DNA from: Bacilli bacterium
GTDB taxonomy: Bacteria > Bacillota_I > Bacilli_A > RF39 > UBA660
DNA length: 64,000 bases
Assembly (NCBI GenBank): GCA_017398945.1
Contig: JAFQES010000008.1
Span: forward strand, 15,565 to 79,564
Reading direction: 5' to 3'
In this document: positions 5,904 to 63,846 of the stretch, one piece after another
Layout of the letters: each line of letters opens with the position of its first letter
Position numbering within the stretch: the stretch's first letter is position 1
Notes under the pieces: generated by a model
Told to the model about the DNA's origin: nothing
Database searches by the model: none
Seen by the model: only the letters and a program-made list of their open reading frames with translations
Made by a program: the position numbers and the translations under genes

Positions 5904-6191
5904 ATGAACGAAATAAAATTTCATAGTTTAAATGAATTATATAAAAGATTATTACCGGCTTTAAAAAGCAAAAAGAAAACCTTACATCAAAAAGGTTATA
6001 CTTATATATATGAAGAAGATATATGGAATTGCTGTAAGGCCTCTTGGTCTAAAAGAACTAATTTAGAATTATATAATATGGTAGATGATATTTTAAATAC
6101 CGATGATGAAGTATTTGATAAATATTTAAAAGATTATTTTAAAGGCAGTCACCGCCGATTAAGTAAGGATGAGATACATAGTGAGAACTGA
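5904..6191 (+). CDS. ComN/YrzD-like post-transcriptional regulator family protein
   Basis: 95 aa. The pattern LNELYKRLLPAL...EEDIWNCCKASWSK...LELYNMVDDIL and its position next to the spoVB-like gene match the B. subtilis comN (yrzD) arrangement. Confidence 0.55.
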   Translation: MNEIKFHSLNELYKRLLPALKSKKKTLHQKGYTYIYEEDIWNCCKASWSKRTNLELYNMVDDILNTDDEVFDKYLKDYFKGSHRRLSKDEIHSEN

Positions 6192-8337
6192 CATTTTAAC
6201 AATTGATGATTTATTAAAATTAGTAGACAAAAACTTTCAAAGAAATAATAGTTTAAAAAGGATCAAAAAAGCCTATGATTTTGCTTTAGAAAATCATGCT
6301 GGAAAAACTAGATTAACTAAAGATCCTTACATAATGCATCCATTAAATGTTGCTTATATATTAGCCAATTTAAATGTTGATGAAACAACGATCGTTGCAG
6401 CATTAATTCACGAAACAATAAATAATGGTAATGCTACAGAAGAAGAGATAGAAAATTTATTTGGCATTGAAGTTAAAAATATTGTAAGCATAATTTCGAA
6501 AATAAATAAACTAGAAGCAACAGATGATTCTGATTCAGCATCAATATATTTGCGCAAAGTATTAGTTGGTATGGCAGAAGATGTCAGAATTTTATATGTA
6601 AAATTAGCTGATCGTTTGCACAATATGAGAACAATCTGGGCCGTTCGAAAAGAAAAACAAAAACATAAAGCAAATGAAACTATGAATGTGTTGGTGCCAA
6701 TTGCTCATCGACTTGGAATAAATTCAATTAAAAGTGAATTAGAAAATATATGTTTACGCATTTTAAAACCTGATGTCTACCACGATATTGAAGAAAAATT
6801 AAATGAATCATTCCCTGATTCAAAAATTATTTTAAATGATATGCAAGATGCTATAACAAATATTTTAATTGAAAATGATATTAAATTCGAAATCAAAAGT
6901 CGGGTGAAAAGTGTCTATAGCGTTTACAATAAACTAAATAATGGTAAGAAGTGGAATAATATATATGACTTTTTAGCTTTAAGAATTATTTTAGAAAAAG
7001 AAAGCGATTGCTATTTAGCAGTTGGTTTAATTCATTCTAAATTTAGACCCATGCCAAATCGTTTTAAAGATTATATAGCTATGCCCAAAGAAAACATGTA
7101 TCAATCATTACATACGACAATATTTGGAGCAGATGGACATTTATTCGAAGTTCAATTAAGAACATACGAAATGGACGAGTTTGCCGAAAAAGGTATGGCT
7201 TCTCATTGGTCATATAAAGAAAAAGGCACCAAAAAAGCTCAAAATATTATGGAACAAAAACTAGAAATATTTAGGGCAGTTATCGAAAATAATCGCGATG
7301 AAGAAAATGATAGCATCTTTGCTAAAAATATTTCGGGAGAATTTTTATCAGATTTAATATATGTTTTCACCCCTAAAGGGGATGTTGTAGAACTTCCTAA
7401 AGGAGCAACTCCAATTGACTTTGCTTATCGTATCCATTCAAACGTTGGTTCTAAAATGGTTGGCGCTATCGTAAATGATGTAATGGTTCCATTAACATAT
7501 GAACTACAAGATAATGATATAGTTACCATAAAAACTAGTAATAGTGCAAAACCAAATAAAGATTGGTTAAACATAGTTAAAACATCCCAAGCCAAGAATA
7601 AAATTAAGGCTTATTTTAGCAAACAAGATAAAGCTATGTATATTGAAAGAGGAAAACAATATCTAGAAAAAGAACTGCGCAAAAGAAAACTTTCGATAGC
7701 CGAAACTTTAAGTGACGAAAACATCGAAAAAATATTAAAAGACTTAAAACTTAAAGATCTAAATGATATTTATTTTTCAATTGGATCAGTAAGATACACA
7801 GCCGGCTATATAATTAACTTAACAACTGAAGACAAGCATTCAACCCAAGAAGCATTAATTGAAAAGTTACAAGATAATAAGAAAAATATTGTTTCTAATC
7901 ACAAAAGTGAAATAATTGTTGCTGGAGCTAATGATATTATTGTTAATTTCGCTAAGTGCTGTAATCCGATCAAAGGAGACAATATTGTTGGATATATTAC
8001 TAAAAACCAAGGAATTATCATTCATAAAGAGGGTTGTAAAAATATAGAAAATAAACAAGATCGATTTGTTGATGTTATTTGGAATGAATCTAGTGACAAT
8101 TTATTTATAAGAAAATTACATGTAAAAATAAATGACAATAAAAATCACATGATGGATATTTTTACCTTAGCGGCGAAAAGAAACTTTACAATTGTTTCAA
8201 TCGATACTAAAGAAAGCTATGAAAATAATTTGCCAAACATTAACTACGAAATAAGCATAAAAATCAAAAATATTGCTGAATATAATACATTTGTAAAAGA
8301 TTTAAATAACCAAACATATATAACGGAGGTTTACTGA
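6169..8337 (+). CDS. relA: Long RelA/SpoT homologue with an intact (p)ppGpp synthetase and a degenerate hydrolase motif (RelA-like)
   Basis: Synthetase motifs are present: RVKSVYSVYNK, DFLALRII, DYIAMPKENMYQSLHTT, EVQLRTYEMDEFAEKGMASHWSYKE. A TGS domain (IYVFTPKGDVVELPKGATPIDFAYRIHS), a CC zinc-finger region and a C-terminal ACT/RRM-like domain are also present. The hydrolase HDVxEDT motif reads HETINNG. The start may be ATG 6169 or GTG 6181. Confidence 0.9.
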   Translation: MRYIVRTDILTIDDLLKLVDKNFQRNNSLKRIKKAYDFALENHAGKTRLTKDPYIMHPLNVAYILANLNVDETTIVAALIHETINNGNATEEEIENLFGIEVKNIVSIISKINKLEATDDSDSASIYLRKVLVGMAEDVRILYVKLADRLHNMRTIWAVRKEKQKHKANETMNVLVPIAHRLGINSIKSELENICLRILKPDVYHDIEEKLNESFPDSKIILNDMQDAITNILIENDIKFEIKSRVKSVYSVYNKLNNGKKWNNIYDFLALRIILEKESDCYLAVGLIHSKFRPMPNRFKDYIAMPKENMYQSLHTTIFGADGHLFEVQLRTYEMDEFAEKGMASHWSYKEKGTKKAQNIMEQKLEIFRAVIENNRDEENDSIFAKNISGEFLSDLIYVFTPKGDVVELPKGATPIDFAYRIHSNVGSKMVGAIVNDVMVPLTYELQDNDIVTIKTSNSAKPNKDWLNIVKTSQAKNKIKAYFSKQDKAMYIERGKQYLEKELRKRKLSIAETLSDENIEKILKDLKLKDLNDIYFSIGSVRYTAGYIINLTTEDKHSTQEALIEKLQDNKKNIVSNHKSEIIVAGANDIIVNFAKCCNPIKGDNIVGYITKNQGIIIHKEGCKNIENKQDRFVDVIWNESSDNLFIRKLHVKINDNKNHMMDIFTLAAKRNFTIVSIDTKESYENNLPNINYEISIKIKNIAEYNTFVKDLNNQTYITEVY

Positions 8338-58631: not shown

Positions 58632-58961
58632 ATGTATTTAACAATCGGCAAAAATAAATATAAAATTATTAAAGCTACTTCTTTTTTTAAAAGATTAATA
58701 GGATTAATAGGAAAAATCGATATTGATTACGGAATGTTATTTCCTAATTGTAATAGTATTCATACTTATTTTATGAAAGAAAATATTGATATAATTGGAT
58801 TAGATGAAAATAACGAAGTCATCTACAAATATCAAAATTTACAAAAAAATCAGATAATTCATATTAATAATCCCCAAAAGAAAACTAGCATCTTAGAATT
58901 ACCTAATAATGCCAGCAAAAAAATTAAATTAAATTCAATATTACTCTTTGAAGATGAATAA
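58632..58961 (+). CDS. DUF192-family protein, divergent from the tad operon
   Basis: A.SFFKRLIGLIG......GMLFPNCNSIHTYFM...IDIIGLD....V, which fits the DUF192 pattern. AGGTGA SD before ATG 58632. Confidence 0.65.
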   Translation: MYLTIGKNKYKIIKATSFFKRLIGLIGKIDIDYGMLFPNCNSIHTYFMKENIDIIGLDENNEVIYKYQNLQKNQIIHINNPQKKTSILELPNNASKKIKLNSILLFEDE

Positions 58962-60215
58962 ATAGTCTAAAATCTGAACTTCATCTCCCCGTTGGGCCCC
59001 TAAACGCTCTAATTCTTCTTCAATACCCATTCCTTTTAATTTACGAGCAAATCTTCGAATGCCTTCATCTTCCGTAAATTTAGTCATTTTAAATAGTTTT
59101 TCGACTTCATCGCCCTTAATAATCCATATACCATCTTCATTAGTAATTGTATACGGTTTTTCATTTTTAAATTTATAAATCACATGACTCTCTAATTGTT
59201 CATCGTTATATAACTCTTCTTGTTCAGTTTGGGCAATAATATCTGCTAACCGAAGCAACAATTTATCTAACCCTTGATGAGTAACTGCACTAATTTCAAA
59301 TACTTCAATATTTGGATATTGCTCTTTAAATTTAGCTAAATTATTTTGAGCATCCGGTAAATCCATTTTATTAGCAATTACAACTTGTTTCTTATTCGCT
59401 AATTTATCACTGTATTTTTTTATTTCGTTATTAATAATTTCAAAATCATTAATTGGATCTCTACCTTCAAACGATCCCATATCAAGTACATGCGCTAAAA
59501 TTTTAGTTCGCATAGCATGACGTAAAAATTTATGTCCTAAACCTGCACCATCACTAGCATTTTCGATTAACCCAGGTAAATCAGCTATTGTATAATTTCT
59601 GTTATCACTCAATTTTACAACTCCTAAATTGGGACTTAATGTTGTAAAGTGATATGCTCCTATTTTCGGCTTAGAAGAGCTAACTACAGAAAGCAAGGTG
59701 CTTTTTCCGACACTTGGCATTCCAATTAATCCTACTTCTGCTAAAACTTTTAGTTCGCATTTAATTAATCTTTCTTCACCAGGCTCACCATATTCACTCA
59801 ATTTAGGAGCCGGTTCATTTTGGGTAGCAAACGCTTTATTTCCTCGGCCCCCGCGACCACCTTTAGCAACAATAACTTTATCATCAGGATTAACTAGGTC
59901 AGCAATAACTAAATTAGTATCTAAATCAATTACTGTTGTACCTTGAGGAACTTTTATTATGACATCATCAGCCATCGCCCCAGTTCTGTTAGAACCTTTA
60001 CCATTTGTTCCCTTATCACCTTTAATAATTTTATGATATTTTAAATCAATTAAAGTTTTTAAGCCAGCGTCAACAATAAATACTATATCAGCACCTTTTC
60101 CTCCAGAACCACCATCAGGGCCTCCCATTGGCACGCATTTTTCTCTTCTAAAAGATGTGCATCCATCTCCACCTTTCCCTGCTTCAACCTTTATTGTAAC
60201 TTCATCTATAAACAT
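58941..60215 (-). CDS. obg: GTPase Obg/CgtA
   Basis: MFIDEV.I.V.AGKGGDG..SFRREK..P.GGPDGG.GG.G, G1 GMPSVGKSTLLS, DLPGLIE.AS.G.GLG..FLRH, NKMD, C-terminal OCT domain. Confidence 0.94.
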   Translation of the reverse strand: MFIDEVTIKVEAGKGGDGCTSFRREKCVPMGGPDGGSGGKGADIVFIVDAGLKTLIDLKYHKIIKGDKGTNGKGSNRTGAMADDVIIKVPQGTTVIDLDTNLVIADLVNPDDKVIVAKGGRGGRGNKAFATQNEPAPKLSEYGEPGEERLIKCELKVLAEVGLIGMPSVGKSTLLSVVSSSKPKIGAYHFTTLSPNLGVVKLSDNRNYTIADLPGLIENASDGAGLGHKFLRHAMRTKILAHVLDMGSFEGRDPINDFEIINNEIKKYSDKLANKKQVVIANKMDLPDAQNNLAKFKEQYPNIEVFEISAVTHQGLDKLLLRLADIIAQTEQEELYNDEQLESHVIYKFKNEKPYTITNEDGIWIIKGDEVEKLFKMTKFTEDEGIRRFARKLKGMGIEEELERLGAQRGDEVQILDYLFIFKE

Positions 60216-60318
60216 AATTTCACCTCTTTTTAACAACATTATTATCATACCACACTTTGTTTAAAATAAAAATAATTCATTAAAAAAAAGATTCTTATTA
60301 TGAATCTCGTTTTATTTC

Positions 60319-61287
60319 TTATAATATTTGTAAATCTTGAAGTTCTCTTTCCGTTTTTTCTTCCCAACTAGAAGCTTGCACCTCTGCTATATGTCTACAT
60401 CCCAGAATTAACATCAAAACTCTTGATTGACCAATACCACCACCAATTGTGTATGGTAATTCTTTATTAATAATTTTTTGATGATATGGTAATATTAATC
60501 TATCCATTGCATCAGCTTTTTCTAATTGAGCTAATAATGATTTTTCATCAACTCGAATTCCCATAGATGAGATTTCAACTGCTTTATCAATAATTTCATC
60601 ATATATTAATAAATCTCCATTCAACTCCCAGTCATCATAATCAGGACTTCGTAAATCATGAGGAATACCAGATTGTAATTTTTCTCCTACCCCAATTATA
60701 AAAACGGCTTTCTTATTTTTACAAATAATATCTTCACGTTCTTTTGGGGTTTTATCAGGATATATATCTTCTAATTCCTGACTATCAATAAAATAAACAT
60801 CAGAAGGTAAATCTATATACGAAAAACCATATTTTTCTTTAATTAAACTTACTGTTTCTTTTAAAGCATCATATATAGCTCTTATTGTTTCTTTTAAATA
60901 ATCTATTGTTCGGTCTTCTTTTAGTATAACTTTTTCCCAATCCCATTGTTCAACATACAAAGAGTGTAAAGCATCTACAACTTCATCTTTTCTGATTGCT
61001 TTCATGTCCGTATACAAACCACGATTAATTGGAAACGCATATTTTCCTAATGCTTCTCTTTTCCATTTTGCTAACGAATGAACTATTTCAAATGACTCAT
61101 CGCCTTTTGTAAAGCCAACAGCTTTTTCTACCCCTGTTAAACCATCCTGTAATCCAGAAGAAGTTTTAACAAACAACGGGCTTCCTACTTTTATTAAACT
61201 TAACTTTGCTTCAATTTTTTCTTCAAAACATTTTTTTATTTCAGCAATTAATTTTATTTTTTCTAAATAACTTATATCTTTTTTCAT
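60319..61287 (-). CDS. asnA: Aspartate--ammonia ligase (asparagine synthetase A)
   Basis: L.L..V..PLFV...SGLQD.L.G.EK.V.F, VHSLAKWKR, RKDE..D..HS.YV.QWDWE, GIGQSR..M. Start taken at M25 (MKKDISY). Confidence 0.88.
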   Translation of the reverse strand: MKKDISYLEKIKLIAEIKKCFEEKIEAKLSLIKVGSPLFVKTSSGLQDGLTGVEKAVGFTKGDESFEIVHSLAKWKREALGKYAFPINRGLYTDMKAIRKDEVVDALHSLYVEQWDWEKVILKEDRTIDYLKETIRAIYDALKETVSLIKEKYGFSYIDLPSDVYFIDSQELEDIYPDKTPKEREDIICKNKKAVFIIGVGEKLQSGIPHDLRSPDYDDWELNGDLLIYDEIIDKAVEISSMGIRVDEKSLLAQLEKADAMDRLILPYHQKIINKELPYTIGGGIGQSRVLMLILGCRHIAEVQASSWEEKTERELQDLQIL

Positions 61288-61390
61288 TATAATCCTTCTT
61301 TCTCTTAATTTTAATTTACGTATAAAACGTCTCTTAATTTTATGAAACATCACAAACAATTATTATCTTCTTTCAAAAAATCACACCCTT

Positions 61391-61669
61391 AAAAAAACCC
61401 GTTTCATCCCAAACATAAGGACGAATACGGGTATTTCGCGGTGCCACCTTAATTTATTACTAAAGGTTATTATACCTTTTATTTTAGTAATCTCTTTTGC
61501 TCTATTAAGCATTAGCAATATGATAACGGTTTGCATCCGAACTAGTCTACTAAGATAATTCCTTTCGGCAGTTTGCTCTAAGGTGTTCTTTCACAATATC
61601 CCTATAATCAGTTCACACTATACCTGATTCACTCGTATAAGCAATAAGGTTACTTTTCCTCTTCATCGC
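61391..61669 (-). promoter_or_regulatory. T-box riboswitch leader (Asn specifier) controlling asnA
   Basis: Minus strand: GCGATGAAGAGG...AGTA stem-I base. GAA-AG-AAC-A specifier context (AAC = plus 61585-61587). T-box core AAGGTGGCACCGCG (61450-61437). Terminator ACCCGTATTCGTCC...GGATGAAACGGGTTTTTTT (61433-61391). Confidence 0.85.
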
Positions 61670-61675
61670 AAAAAC

Positions 61676-61724: not shown

Positions 61725-63191
61725 CTATTTACCAATATATTGCTTAATCTTTTTTCTAGCATAGGATGTTTGAGCATAAGAAAGCCATTCTTCTGAACAT
61801 GTAGTATTATCGTCTTCTACTATAACTGTAACTCGATCATCATTTTGCAATCTTTCAAACTTGTTTGCTTCAATACCATTAATTAATACTCGATCCATTT
61901 TAGCCCCAATATCACTATGAATTTTAAAAGCGAAATCTATTGCTGTAGCATCTACTGGTAATTCGACTATATATCCATTAGGAGTCTTAACATAAATATT
62001 ATTTGCCAATAATTCATCTTTTACTTTTGAAGCAAAATCTTTTGTCCCATCATTTGCCTCTCTAAGTTTTAATAGTTCCTCGTAGAACTGTAATGATTGG
62101 AATTTATCTTGCATTATTTGACTTGCTTTTCCAGGTTCTAAAATCCAATAAGCAGATAAGCCATAAGAAGCAATTGTTGCCATATCAAAAGTTTTAGGTT
62201 GGAACTGAATCAAGTGGCCAAAGGATGAATTTACGGTCGTATGAATAGATTGATACATATTAGTTTTAGGATTAAAAATAAAATCTTTAAAATATTTATT
62301 TTCCGGTTTATAACACATATGAACAGCCATTAAAGCTTTATAACACTCCTCTATTTTTTTTACCAACACATTAATAACCATTATGTCATGAATCTCATCA
62401 AACTCAATTCCCTTTGCTAATTTCAAATGAATACCAAAAATATCTTTGAATTTTATACGCAGCTGACTATCTACTCCTAGATTAAAAAGTTTATTTTGCA
62501 CTGTTATTTTCATCGCATCTAAGTCGTTAAAATGAGTTTCCTTTAAAAACTCTCTTTTTTGATAAATATCATTGTATTCGGAAGGTTTTAAATATTTAAA
62601 AGATAAATCCTGCAATTCCTTCATGATTCGGTAAGCCCCAATTTTTCCCGCTATTCTTGAATATATTTCTAAAGTTTCTAAAGCCTTTTCTTTTTGTTTA
62701 AATGAATTTTTATAATTTAGCGTTCTCATATTATGTAATCGATCCGCTAACTTTATAATAAGAATTCTAATATCCACCAAACAACTTTTTAATAATTTTT
62801 CTTCATTAGCAGCTTTTTCTTCTTCTTTTGAAGTAAAAGAAATATTATCTATTTTAGTTACACCTTGAACCAAGGTTAAAACAGTTTGACCAAAAAGCTT
62901 TAAAATTTCTTCTTCTAAAGCAGACGTATCTTCTAAAACATCATGTAACAAAGCTGCACAAATTGTATTACTATCGGCATGCATCTGCGCCAAAATTAAG
63001 GCAACATTTAAAGGATGAGTTATAAAAGGCTCTCCACTATTACGTTTTTGGCCAAAATGATATCCATTTGCATAATTATATGCTTTTATAATACGTTCTT
63101 CATCAATAGGCATATAACTATTTGTTTTATCAATCAATTGTTTTAATAATTCTGCTCCTACAATATCGTAGCTATTTACATTACAATTCAT
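61725..63191 (-). CDS. Second long RelA/SpoT homologue: intact HD hydrolase, degenerate synthetase, TGS domain, C-terminally truncated (SpoT-like, hydrolase-only)
   Basis: Hydrolase motifs are intact: GQKRNSGEPFITHPLNVALILA, LLHDVLEDT, LADRLHNMRT. The synthetase positions are altered: DIMVINVLV (Arg lost), DFIFNPKTNMYQSIHTT, and IQFQPKT in place of EVQ(I/L)RT, with YW.ILE in place of HW.YKE. TGS: IYVKTPNGYIVELPVDATAIDFAFKIHS. Ends shortly after the TGS domain (488 aa). Confidence 0.85.
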   Translation of the reverse strand: MNCNVNSYDIVGAELLKQLIDKTNSYMPIDEERIIKAYNYANGYHFGQKRNSGEPFITHPLNVALILAQMHADSNTICAALLHDVLEDTSALEEEILKLFGQTVLTLVQGVTKIDNISFTSKEEEKAANEEKLLKSCLVDIRILIIKLADRLHNMRTLNYKNSFKQKEKALETLEIYSRIAGKIGAYRIMKELQDLSFKYLKPSEYNDIYQKREFLKETHFNDLDAMKITVQNKLFNLGVDSQLRIKFKDIFGIHLKLAKGIEFDEIHDIMVINVLVKKIEECYKALMAVHMCYKPENKYFKDFIFNPKTNMYQSIHTTVNSSFGHLIQFQPKTFDMATIASYGLSAYWILEPGKASQIMQDKFQSLQFYEELLKLREANDGTKDFASKVKDELLANNIYVKTPNGYIVELPVDATAIDFAFKIHSDIGAKMDRVLINGIEANKFERLQNDDRVTVIVEDDNTTCSEEWLSYAQTSYARKKIKQYIGK

Positions 63192-63264
63192 CCCAAACCA
63201 CCACTTTTTATTTAATTAACTATATAATAATACGTTTTAAAAAAAAACACAAATAAAAAAGCGC

Positions 63265-63549
63265 TTAGTTTTCGTAAACGCTTACTTTCTTCTTATCTCT
63301 TCCTAATCTTTCAAAACGAACTGTTCCACTAACTTTAGCAAATAATGTATGATCTTTGCCCATTCCAACATTAGTTCCTGGGTAAATTTTAGTACCTCTT
63401 TGACGATATATAATAGAACCAGCAGTAACTACTTGACCATCGCTTGCTTTAGCACCTAAACGACGTCCACGAGAGTCACGACCATTATCGGTTGAAGATT
63501 GACCTTTTTTATGAGCGAATAATTGAATATTCAAAATCATAAATTTCAT
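63265..63549 (-). CDS. rpmA: 50S ribosomal protein L27 with a cleavable N-terminal extension
   Basis: [55 protein letters not shown]. Confidence 0.95.
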
Positions 63550-63552
63550 GTT

Positions 63553-63846
63553 TCATCCTCCTATAATTTTTATATTTTCTTCGTATTGACTTGCTAAATC
63601 TTTTAACATGTCTAACATATTTTTTATTATTGTTAATGTTATTTTATCTTTTTTTAAAACTTCAATTTCTAAACCATCTTTATTTTCTTGATAACTAATC
63701 GCATCTTTATCAAATTGTAATACACAATTAATTGAAGATATTATAATTGATGATGCACTAGCACAAACAATATCTTTACCATAATCATCATATAAAGCAT
63801 GGCCAGTAATTATAATTTTATCATTCTTAACATTTACTTTAATCAT
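63553..63846 (-). CDS. prp: Ribosomal-processing cysteine protease Prp
   Basis: 97 aa between rplU and rpmA. Motifs GHA......G.DIVCASASS. Confidence 0.88.
   Translation of the reverse strand: MIKVNVKNDKIIITGHALYDDYGKDIVCASASSIIISSINCVLQFDKDAISYQENKDGLEIEVLKKDKITLTIIKNMLDMLKDLASQYEENIKIIGG

Follow-up and report, generated by a model that had tools for sequence, protein, structure and literature searches.

The window analyzed here, a 64,000-nucleotide stretch of contig JAFQES010000008.1 (assembly GCA_017398945.1), comes from a Bacilli bacterium of the GTDB lineage Bacillota_I; Bacilli_A; RF39; UBA660. At positions 61725..63191 of its minus strand lies an intact open reading frame (ORF) with an ATG start codon and a GGTGG-type ribosome-binding site, which encodes a 488 amino acid protein belonging to the RelA/SpoT homologue (RSH) family, hereafter the short RSH. 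A sequence-only reading of this DNA had described it as a long-RSH paralogue situated between rpmA and obg, with an intact hydrolase and an eroded synthetase; the ORF, the Pfam matches and the gene order agree with the identity and position of the gene, and all of the motif strings that were quoted are present.

Our analysis identified, from the N- to the C-terminus, an HD (hydrolase) domain (aa 37-185; 62637..63083; Pfam HD_4, 132.8 bits), a pseudo-synthetase domain (aa 249-350; 62142..62447; Pfam RelA_SpoT, 75.2 bits), Core helices, a TGS domain (aa 399-457; 61821..61997; Pfam TGS, 43.6 bits) and a tail of two short helices that corresponds to the start of the Rel helical domain (aa 458-488; 61728..61820), all on the minus strand. 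The three Pfam matches exceed their cut-offs, although the RelA_SpoT score is lower than the 129.5 bits of the full-length, 722 amino acid Rel encoded elsewhere in the window. The presence of HD_4, RelA_SpoT and TGS in one chain is the architecture of the long-RSH class, and the three domains set the protein apart from small alarmone hydrolases (SAHs), which have a lone HD domain. The chain stops 31 residues past the TGS match, so that the retained TGS domain and the truncation that had been described both stand and the proposed tail of about 40 residues is corrected; no Pfam match to the AH/RIS or ACT domains was found in the short RSH, in line with the claimed absence of the C-terminal regulatory domains. 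The match to the NCBIfam model TIGR00691 (spoT_relA) spans model positions 1-449 out of 687 and reaches 469.5 bits, under the cut-off of 499.2, as expected because the protein is truncated. The closest solved relative is B. subtilis Rel (PDB 6yxa, E = 6.5e-100), whose alignment spans residues 17-487 of the short RSH and ends at Rel residue 482, in the first helix past TGS; about 240 C-terminal residues of Rel are gone.

An AlphaFold2 model built from the family alignment (mean pLDDT 87.9, pTM 0.84) shows the HD helices, a synthetase domain with an alpha/beta fold, Core helices at 356-394 (three of them), a beta-grasp for TGS and a terminal pair of helices (467-471 and 476-487). The top Foldseek ranks for this model were B. 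subtilis Rel, A. baumannii SpoT and E. coli RelA, and its N-terminal half superimposes on the N-terminal domains of S. aureus Rel with pppGpp (PDB 7oiw) with a TM-score of 0.93 and a root-mean-square deviation of 1.9 A. The predicted structure confirms the fold and does not decide the activity.

To describe the catalytic motifs, residues are numbered as in B. subtilis Rel (6yxa), which equals RelSeq numbering up to residue 315, E324 being RelSeq E323. In the hydrolase domain all catalytic residues are kept (R44 as R50, H53 as H59, H77/D78 as H83/D84, E81/D82 as E87/D88, D144 as D150 and N148 as N154), which bears out the claim of an intact hydrolase. In the synthetase domain the catalytic E324 is replaced by Q329 (in IQFQPKT), and further changes are R241 to K247, R269 to N274 (the arginine said to be lost in DIMVINVLV), Y299 to F304, R328 to K333 and, within the string AS.G.S.YW.ILE, E337 to S342, H343 to Y348 and Y346/K347 to L351/E352. 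Those within the three quoted strings had been proposed from the letters alone, and the alignment does not restore the synthetase catalytic residues. K243, K251, D264, K297, K304, N306, Y308, H312 and Q326 are kept. The TGS histidine equivalent to B. subtilis Rel H420 is present as H425.

According to the work cited in PMC13299517 (Hogg et al., 2004), synthetase activity is undetectable in the RelSeq variants E323Q and D264G, and according to reports cited in PMC4154780 the exchange G251E abolishes synthesis in E. coli RelA and H354Y lowers it. With a constant offset of +11, RelA G251 and H354 would correspond to Rel G240 and H343. Because the catalytic Glu is Gln, the synthetase domain of the short RSH is predicted to be unable to synthesize (p)ppGpp.

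The short RSH belongs to a family with the same features. In a large protein collection we found more than 110 clusters of 474-495 amino acid proteins at 42-48% identity, all with HD_4, RelA_SpoT and TGS and nothing thereafter. In an alignment of 115 members the HD pair is present in 115/115 and the ED pair in 114/115, and seven positions of DRLHNMRT are invariant, the second R being found in 114 of the 115. Gln replaces the catalytic Glu in 111/115 and Tyr replaces H343 in 107/115, the glycine of the G-R-x-K motif (Gly240) is mostly Val or Ile, and R269 is Lys in 96/115 and Asn in the window protein. Invariant or nearly so are K243, D264, P303-K304, N306, Y308, H312 and Q326, while the TGS histidine is kept in 82/114 members and lost in about 28%. 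The chain stops at the aligned position of residue 488 in 106 of the 115. Since the truncation and the Glu to Gln exchange are kept family-wide, they are conserved traits of ancestral origin, and the synthetase fold is maintained as a pseudo-domain. The window copy and its 85%-identical orthologue in the same-genus genome G002 are more derived: their branch is long (1.13 changes per site), and R241, R269, Y299 and R328 are altered in addition.

A short RSH, called as a frame of 465-530 amino acids scoring above 620 bits, is present in at least about 115 of 401 genomes belonging to one order of uncultured gut Bacilli, and in none of about 180 genomes sampled across about 27 other families of class Bacilli. 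Some genomes of the order (G110, G177, G360, G115 and G322) have two or three full-length copies. Three frames of about 460-475 amino acids that match RelA_SpoT weakly, from genomes of other Bacilli families (G040, G050 and G055), are unrelated, with no BLAST match to either window RSH at 1e-10. A profile and pattern search of genome contigs (DRLHNMRT, T[ILV]CA[AG]LLHD) returned 80 loci from many phyla, nearly all canonical Rels, which the patterns also fit. The window DNA is present in gut and faecal metagenomes, mostly with unspecified host and with sheep and bovine gut among the weaker holders; the sequencing runs that match the stretch are DNA metagenomes only, with no RNA runs among them.

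The ratio of nonsynonymous to synonymous substitution (dN/dS; Nei-Gojobori) was calculated between the window genome and G002. For the short RSH gene it is 0.10 as a whole, 0.034 in the HD domain, 0.061 in the pseudo-synthetase (aa 246-355), 0.12 in TGS and 0.23 in the C-terminal tail; for the 722 amino acid Rel it is 0.05 as a whole and 0.02 in its degenerate, pseudo-HD domain. The short RSH is thus under purifying selection, and neither degenerate domain drifts freely. The description of the synthetase as eroded therefore holds for the loss of the catalytic Glu and does not hold as simple erosion, given a pseudo-domain with Gln in 111/115 members, most binding residues kept and a dN/dS of 0.06. 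A pseudogene or decaying gene was rejected on these ratios together with the family conservation. Between the two genomes the short RSH is 85% and Rel 97% identical. Synonymous divergence is 0.74 for the short RSH gene but 0.28 for rel, for which recombination, codon bias or the local rate of mutation could be responsible.

To place the family, an RSH tree (IQ-TREE, LG+C20, 98 rows, N-terminal 500 residues) was built with short paralogues taken from 14 genomes together with 19 of metagenomic origin, with full-length Rels representing 37 genomes of the order, and with Rels of other Bacilli. The 33 true short RSH proteins fall in a single clade (SH-aLRT 99), whose sister clade holds all of the order's full-length Rels (SH-aLRT 98), and the two together (SH-aLRT 99) are nested within the Rels of other Bacilli. 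This topology points to Rel having been duplicated specifically in this lineage, no later than the base of the order, with many losses since, which is the question that the phylogeny proposed with the sequence-only reading was meant to ask. The short RSH does not fall with the proteobacterial SpoT clade that descends from the RelA/SpoT duplication, and the tree supports an origin from Rel within this Bacilli lineage, independently of proteobacterial RelA and SpoT; long-branch attraction may have drawn the short RSH clade towards the base. In G001, a genome of the window's genus, the short RSH (L067, G001:C4) groups with that of G029, from another genus (L077, G029:C12), with SH-aLRT 99. It lies at a different locus and the G001 Rel stays with its genus, which suggests lateral transfer or replacement of the G001 copy.

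The second RSH of the window is the full-length Rel (6169..8337, plus strand; 722 amino acids), with Pfam HD_4, RelA_SpoT, TGS, AH_RIS and ACT matches. As had been proposed, its hydrolase motif is degenerate, with LIHETINNG in place of LLHDVxEDT (Asp78 to Glu and Glu81-Asp82 to Asn-Asn, HE..NN), and its synthetase motifs are intact, with D264, R269, E324 and H343 present. A degenerate HD..ED, intact synthetase residues and full C-terminal domains are the features of RelA-like [hS] proteins, and this Rel is probably a monofunctional synthetase. A search of the window genome assembly (1.21 Mb, 95% complete) for further alarmone enzymes found two RelA_SpoT genes and two HD_4 genes, which are this same pair, and no small alarmone synthetase or hydrolase; the HD_4 domain of the short RSH is the sole intact one of the genome.

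We compared the state of the Rel hydrolase with the presence of additional hydrolases in 38 genomes of the order. The Rel HD..ED motif is degenerate in 21 of them, which form one clade of 18 plus three separate cases, or about four events. Among these 21 genomes, 11 carry a short RSH, six another HD_4 protein and four nothing detectable; among the 17 genomes with an intact Rel, the respective numbers are 5, 1 and 11. An extra HD_4 hydrolase of any kind is hence found in 17/21 dead-Rel and 6/17 intact-Rel genomes (Fisher p = 0.007, not corrected for phylogeny). Since the short RSH coexists with an intact Rel in 5/17 genomes, the decay of the Rel hydrolase appears to be the later step.

The substitute proteins of these six genomes are either SAH-like (about 180-280 amino acids) or larger SAH-AAA_28 fusions (440-653 amino acids), and HD..ED is intact in all of them. 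SAH-AAA_28 proteins of about 440-457 amino acids, in which an N-terminal SAH-like HD_4 domain with intact HD..ED is fused to an AAA_28 P-loop domain (GTPRTGKT), were observed at loci L082-L087 (G011, G022, G024, G032, G034 and G015), and G015 has a 653 amino acid version with an additional N-terminal HD region. Because most of the genomes that carry them have a dead Rel hydrolase motif, these fusions might act as another kind of alarmone hydrolase, one that has a kinase-like partner domain. In another family of the class, G038 (L062) and G053 (L063) have two full-length RSH genes, one of which (683 and 701 amino acids) has its HD motifs erased and an intact synthetase, alongside a normal Rel[HS] (L022 and L031); this paralogue is a further independent RelA-like [hS] protein in Bacilli.

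On the minus strand of the window, the short RSH gene follows rplU (cut by the window end), prp/ysxB for the L27 N-terminal protease (63553..63846; PF04327 on the orthologue) and rpmA for L27 (63265..63549; PF01016 on the L173/L174 orthologue). A terminator-like hairpin with a T-run, found by consensus scan and in the sequence, overlaps the rpmA stop codon (63259..63283) and lies 68 nt upstream of the short RSH start codon. No sigma-70-like promoter was scored in the 73-nt gap between rpmA and the short RSH, so that its expression may depend on read-through from rplU-prp-rpmA. A Cys-rich leader mini-ORF upstream of the short RSH was looked for as well and is absent from the four loci of the window's genus. 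Downstream come a near-consensus promoter with an extended -10 TG (TTGACA-17-TATATT, 61704-61676), the T-box leader of asnA directly past the short RSH stop codon (61414..61675; Rfam RF00230, 103 bits), asnA for aspartate-ammonia ligase (60319..61359; PF03590 311 bits, TIGR00669 337 bits) and the obg GTPase gene (58941..60248; GTP1_OBG, MMR_HSR1 and DUF1967), all on the same strand. The short RSH is thus not adjacent to obg, because asnA and its T-box lie between; the placement in the rpmA-obg interval, the position of spo0B, is broadly right.

A comparison of 16 short RSH loci shows how local this arrangement is. Counting the window genome (G000), rpmA lies upstream in three of them (G000, G002 and G003) and obg downstream in five, from two genera (G000 and G002-G005). 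The interval to obg holds two unannotated genes in G002-G004, with asnA as well in G002, and in G005 obg is directly adjacent. These two genes (about 218 and 234 amino acids, with no recorded Pfam match) are conserved before obg in G002, G003 and G004 (L068-L070, L173-L175); the window has neither of them and carries the asnA/T-box cassette at this place instead. The other ten loci share no common conserved neighbor. A conserved functional linkage to obg was rejected on these grounds: the association with obg and the ribosomal protein genes is a local feature of two genera, not one of the family.

Taken together, our results favor the short RSH as a monofunctional (p)ppGpp pyrophosphohydrolase of type [Hs], a natural "mini-SpoT", to which we assign a probability of roughly 0.7. 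All enzymatic activities and regulatory steps described here are deduced from sequence and from homologues. The Mn-dependent HD domain would remove the 3'-pyrophosphate from (p)ppGpp, and the synthetase-like domain would be kept as a structural and regulatory pseudo-domain, with the Core helices and TGS holding the HD site in an active state, as in A. baumannii SpoT (SpoT_Ab). In the latter, HD helices alpha6-alpha7 are kept in their active position by Core and TGS, the pseudo-SYNTH domain has a regulatory function and deletion of the RRM and the zinc-finger domain (ZFD) is tolerated in vivo (PMC9974481). The short RSH most likely works off the ribosome, because the ZFD and RRM/ACT domains, the ribosome anchors of Rel, are gone. 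The 722 amino acid Rel[hS] would sense uncharged tRNA on starved ribosomes and make (p)ppGpp, which the short RSH would clear.

This division of labor could have arisen in two steps. Rel would have been duplicated in or before the stem of the order, and one copy truncated and deprived of synthesis, a state still found in many lineages. In some lineages, including the window's genus, the hydrolase of the full-length copy would have decayed later, as permitted by a back-up hydrolase of any kind, and the window would represent the completed state. Subfunctionalization is therefore stepwise, and complete only in some lineages, the window's among them.

Several observations weigh against this account. 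SpoT_Ab cut to its TGS domain (residues 1-454) has strongly reduced hydrolysis (PMC9974481), so the short RSH family may be adapted to the short form or may comprise low-activity enzymes. Asp264 and most nucleotide-binding residues are kept, and residual or altered synthetase catalysis is formally conceivable. In the partner Rel the G-R-x-K glycine, whose mutation to Glu inactivates E. coli RelA, is replaced by Ser (KSRVK, around aa 243), as it is in the Rels of G002, G022 and G027. Four genomes with a dead Rel hydrolase have no extra hydrolase (G018, G021, G023 and G026), which may reflect their 91-94% completeness or another route of degradation. The short RSH taken alone is not significantly associated with a dead Rel hydrolase (11/21 and 5/17, p = 0.20), and a phylogenetically controlled test is powerless because the decay amounts to only about four events. 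Of the independent subfunctionalization proposed earlier, the origin from Rel within the lineage is upheld by the tree; the duplication is nevertheless old, and the paralogue also occurs beside an intact Rel.

One competing explanation is that the short RSH is still bifunctional, with a weak or conditional synthetase like that of E. coli SpoT that the substitutions only tune down. The family goes by "bifunctional (p)ppGpp synthetase/hydrolase" in the public databases (NCBI, JGI), and the domain retains the equivalents of D264, K243, K251, H312 and Q326 and evolves under purifying selection. The names, however, are automatic transfers from models of the TIGR00691 type, whose cut-off the protein does not reach. 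The near-universal Gln is the very exchange that abolishes synthesis in RelSeq (E323Q) in the work cited above, two further positions at which mutations impair E. coli RelA (G251 and H354; PMC4154780) are replaced family-wide, and the window protein is additionally altered at R241, R269 and R328; together these make a remaining bifunctional enzyme very improbable. Least probable of all is that the protein is a decaying or non-enzymatic remnant, or that its HD domain acts on (p)ppApp or on NADPH, as reported for Mesh1, with (p)ppGpp turned over by another route. The short RSH does evolve faster than Rel, some related genomes with a dead Rel hydrolase do without it, and its PDB matches include HD_4 proteins of other specificity, namely a (p)ppApp hydrolase (7smg) and Mesh1 with NADPH. 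Against this stand the HD dN/dS of 0.03 with (p)ppGpp-hydrolase motifs invariant across 115 members, the direct descent from Rel and the position of this domain as the sole intact HD_4 in a genome that has a synthetase.

A different question is whether a hydrolase of this kind would be constitutive or gated by metabolites. GTP/GDP, ATP or (p)ppGpp bound at the dead synthetase site, uncharged tRNA bound at TGS, or both, could switch the HD domain. In the family, the pppGpp-contacting residues of the RelSeq synthetase site are for the most part conserved (R241, K243, K251, K297, Y299, H312 and Q325), the pseudo-synthetase has a dN/dS of 0.06 and the pseudo-SYNTH of SpoT_Ab is a regulatory domain (PMC9974481). 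The TGS histidine is kept in most members and in the window protein. We take this residue (B. subtilis Rel H420, E. coli RelA H432) to be needed for recognition of the tRNA CCA end in Rel. Yet several binding residues are changed in the window lineage (R241K, R269N, Y299F and R328K), on a branch that is long, and more than a quarter of the family has lost the histidine, so that we consider such a switch unlikely for the protein studied here. For the family at large we advance, tentatively and with modest expectations, the idea of a minimal, ribosome-independent alarmone "sink" in which the dead synthetase pocket would serve as a nucleotide sensor for (p)ppGpp, or for GTP/GDP and ATP, and would gate the HD domain through Core and TGS. 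If so, alarmone decay would be under feed-forward or product-sensing control, and in the window's genus the position behind the rplU-prp-rpmA operon and its terminator would add a coupling of hydrolase supply to ribosomal-protein transcription.

Returning to the hydrolase-only reading, its wider meaning lies in where it is found. The RelA/SpoT split of Beta- and Gammaproteobacteria is the textbook case of alarmone subfunctionalization, with a second step in Moraxellaceae, and the usual picture for Firmicutes is a single bifunctional Rel accompanied by small synthetases. A RelA/SpoT-like outcome would have been reached independently in an order of gut Bacilli with small genomes, with several stages visible: duplication with truncation and synthetase loss, coexistence with a bifunctional Rel, and decay of the Rel hydrolase. 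In the window genome the alarmone system is down to two genes. A natural minimal hydrolase of HD, pseudo-synthetase, Core and TGS could also serve to test which domains long-RSH hydrolysis needs and what the pseudo-synthetase does, and the bifunctional name under which the family is currently annotated would call for revision. Our full-text literature searches found no description of such a hydrolase-only short RSH family in Firmicutes.

Among known systems, the bifunctional Firmicute Rels (6yxa/8acu, 7oiw and RelSeq 1vj7) are the best sequence and structure matches and the direct evolutionary parent of the short RSH, which differs from them by the loss of the synthetase catalytic Glu and of the C-terminal region. 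By sequence the short RSH has the features of a hydrolase-only long RSH, with intact HD motifs and lost synthesis residues (E324Q, R269N, H343Y, R241K and R328K). The closest functional parallel is SpoT[Hs] of Moraxellaceae (SpoT_Ab; PDB 7qpr; PMC9974481), likewise derived from a long RSH, hydrolase-only (a predicted property in our case) and endowed with an inactive pseudo-synthetase, and likewise paired with a synthetase-only, pseudo-HD paralogue through subfunctionalization after a Rel duplication. The two have independent origins, with about 24% identity to 7qpr; SpoT_Ab keeps the helical, ZFD and RRM domains that the short RSH lacks, and in it both catalytic residues and most binding residues are replaced, whereas in the short RSH Glu is exchanged for Gln, and Asp264 and Gln325 are kept. 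E. coli RelA and SpoT resemble the predicted roles of the window pair, a ribosome-bound pseudo-HD synthetase with a hydrolase paralogue, but E. coli SpoT is not truncated and still has weak synthetase activity, and its duplication is independent of that in Bacilli. SAHs (Mesh1, RelH and PaSAH) are stand-alone and ribosome-independent, as predicted for the short RSH, and consist of a single HD domain of about 180 amino acids, in contrast to the pseudo-synthetase, Core and TGS that the short RSH keeps; in sister genera where the Rel hydrolase is dead, SAH-type proteins seem to take on this role.

In architecture, the nearest counterpart is RshC[HS], which some strains of the B. cereus group carry as a second, truncated Rel (Atkinson, Tenson and Hauryliuk, 2011; PMC3153485). 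Compared by description, both RshC and the short RSH family have HD, SYNTH and TGS, lack CC/ZFD and ACT and are truncated in the helical domain; our search for Bacillus RshC in seven genomes from Bacillales and Lactobacillales yielded only Rel and SAH-like matches. RshC is predicted to have both activities and occurs sporadically among strains, beside Rel[HS], RelP and RelQ (PMC3153485), whereas the short RSH family is of the predicted [Hs] type, is widespread in one order of gut Bacilli and provides the only hydrolase of the window genome. An architecture of this kind has thus been known since 2011, and what sets the short RSH family apart from RshC is the dead synthetase, the wide spread within one order and, in the window genome, the role as sole hydrolase.

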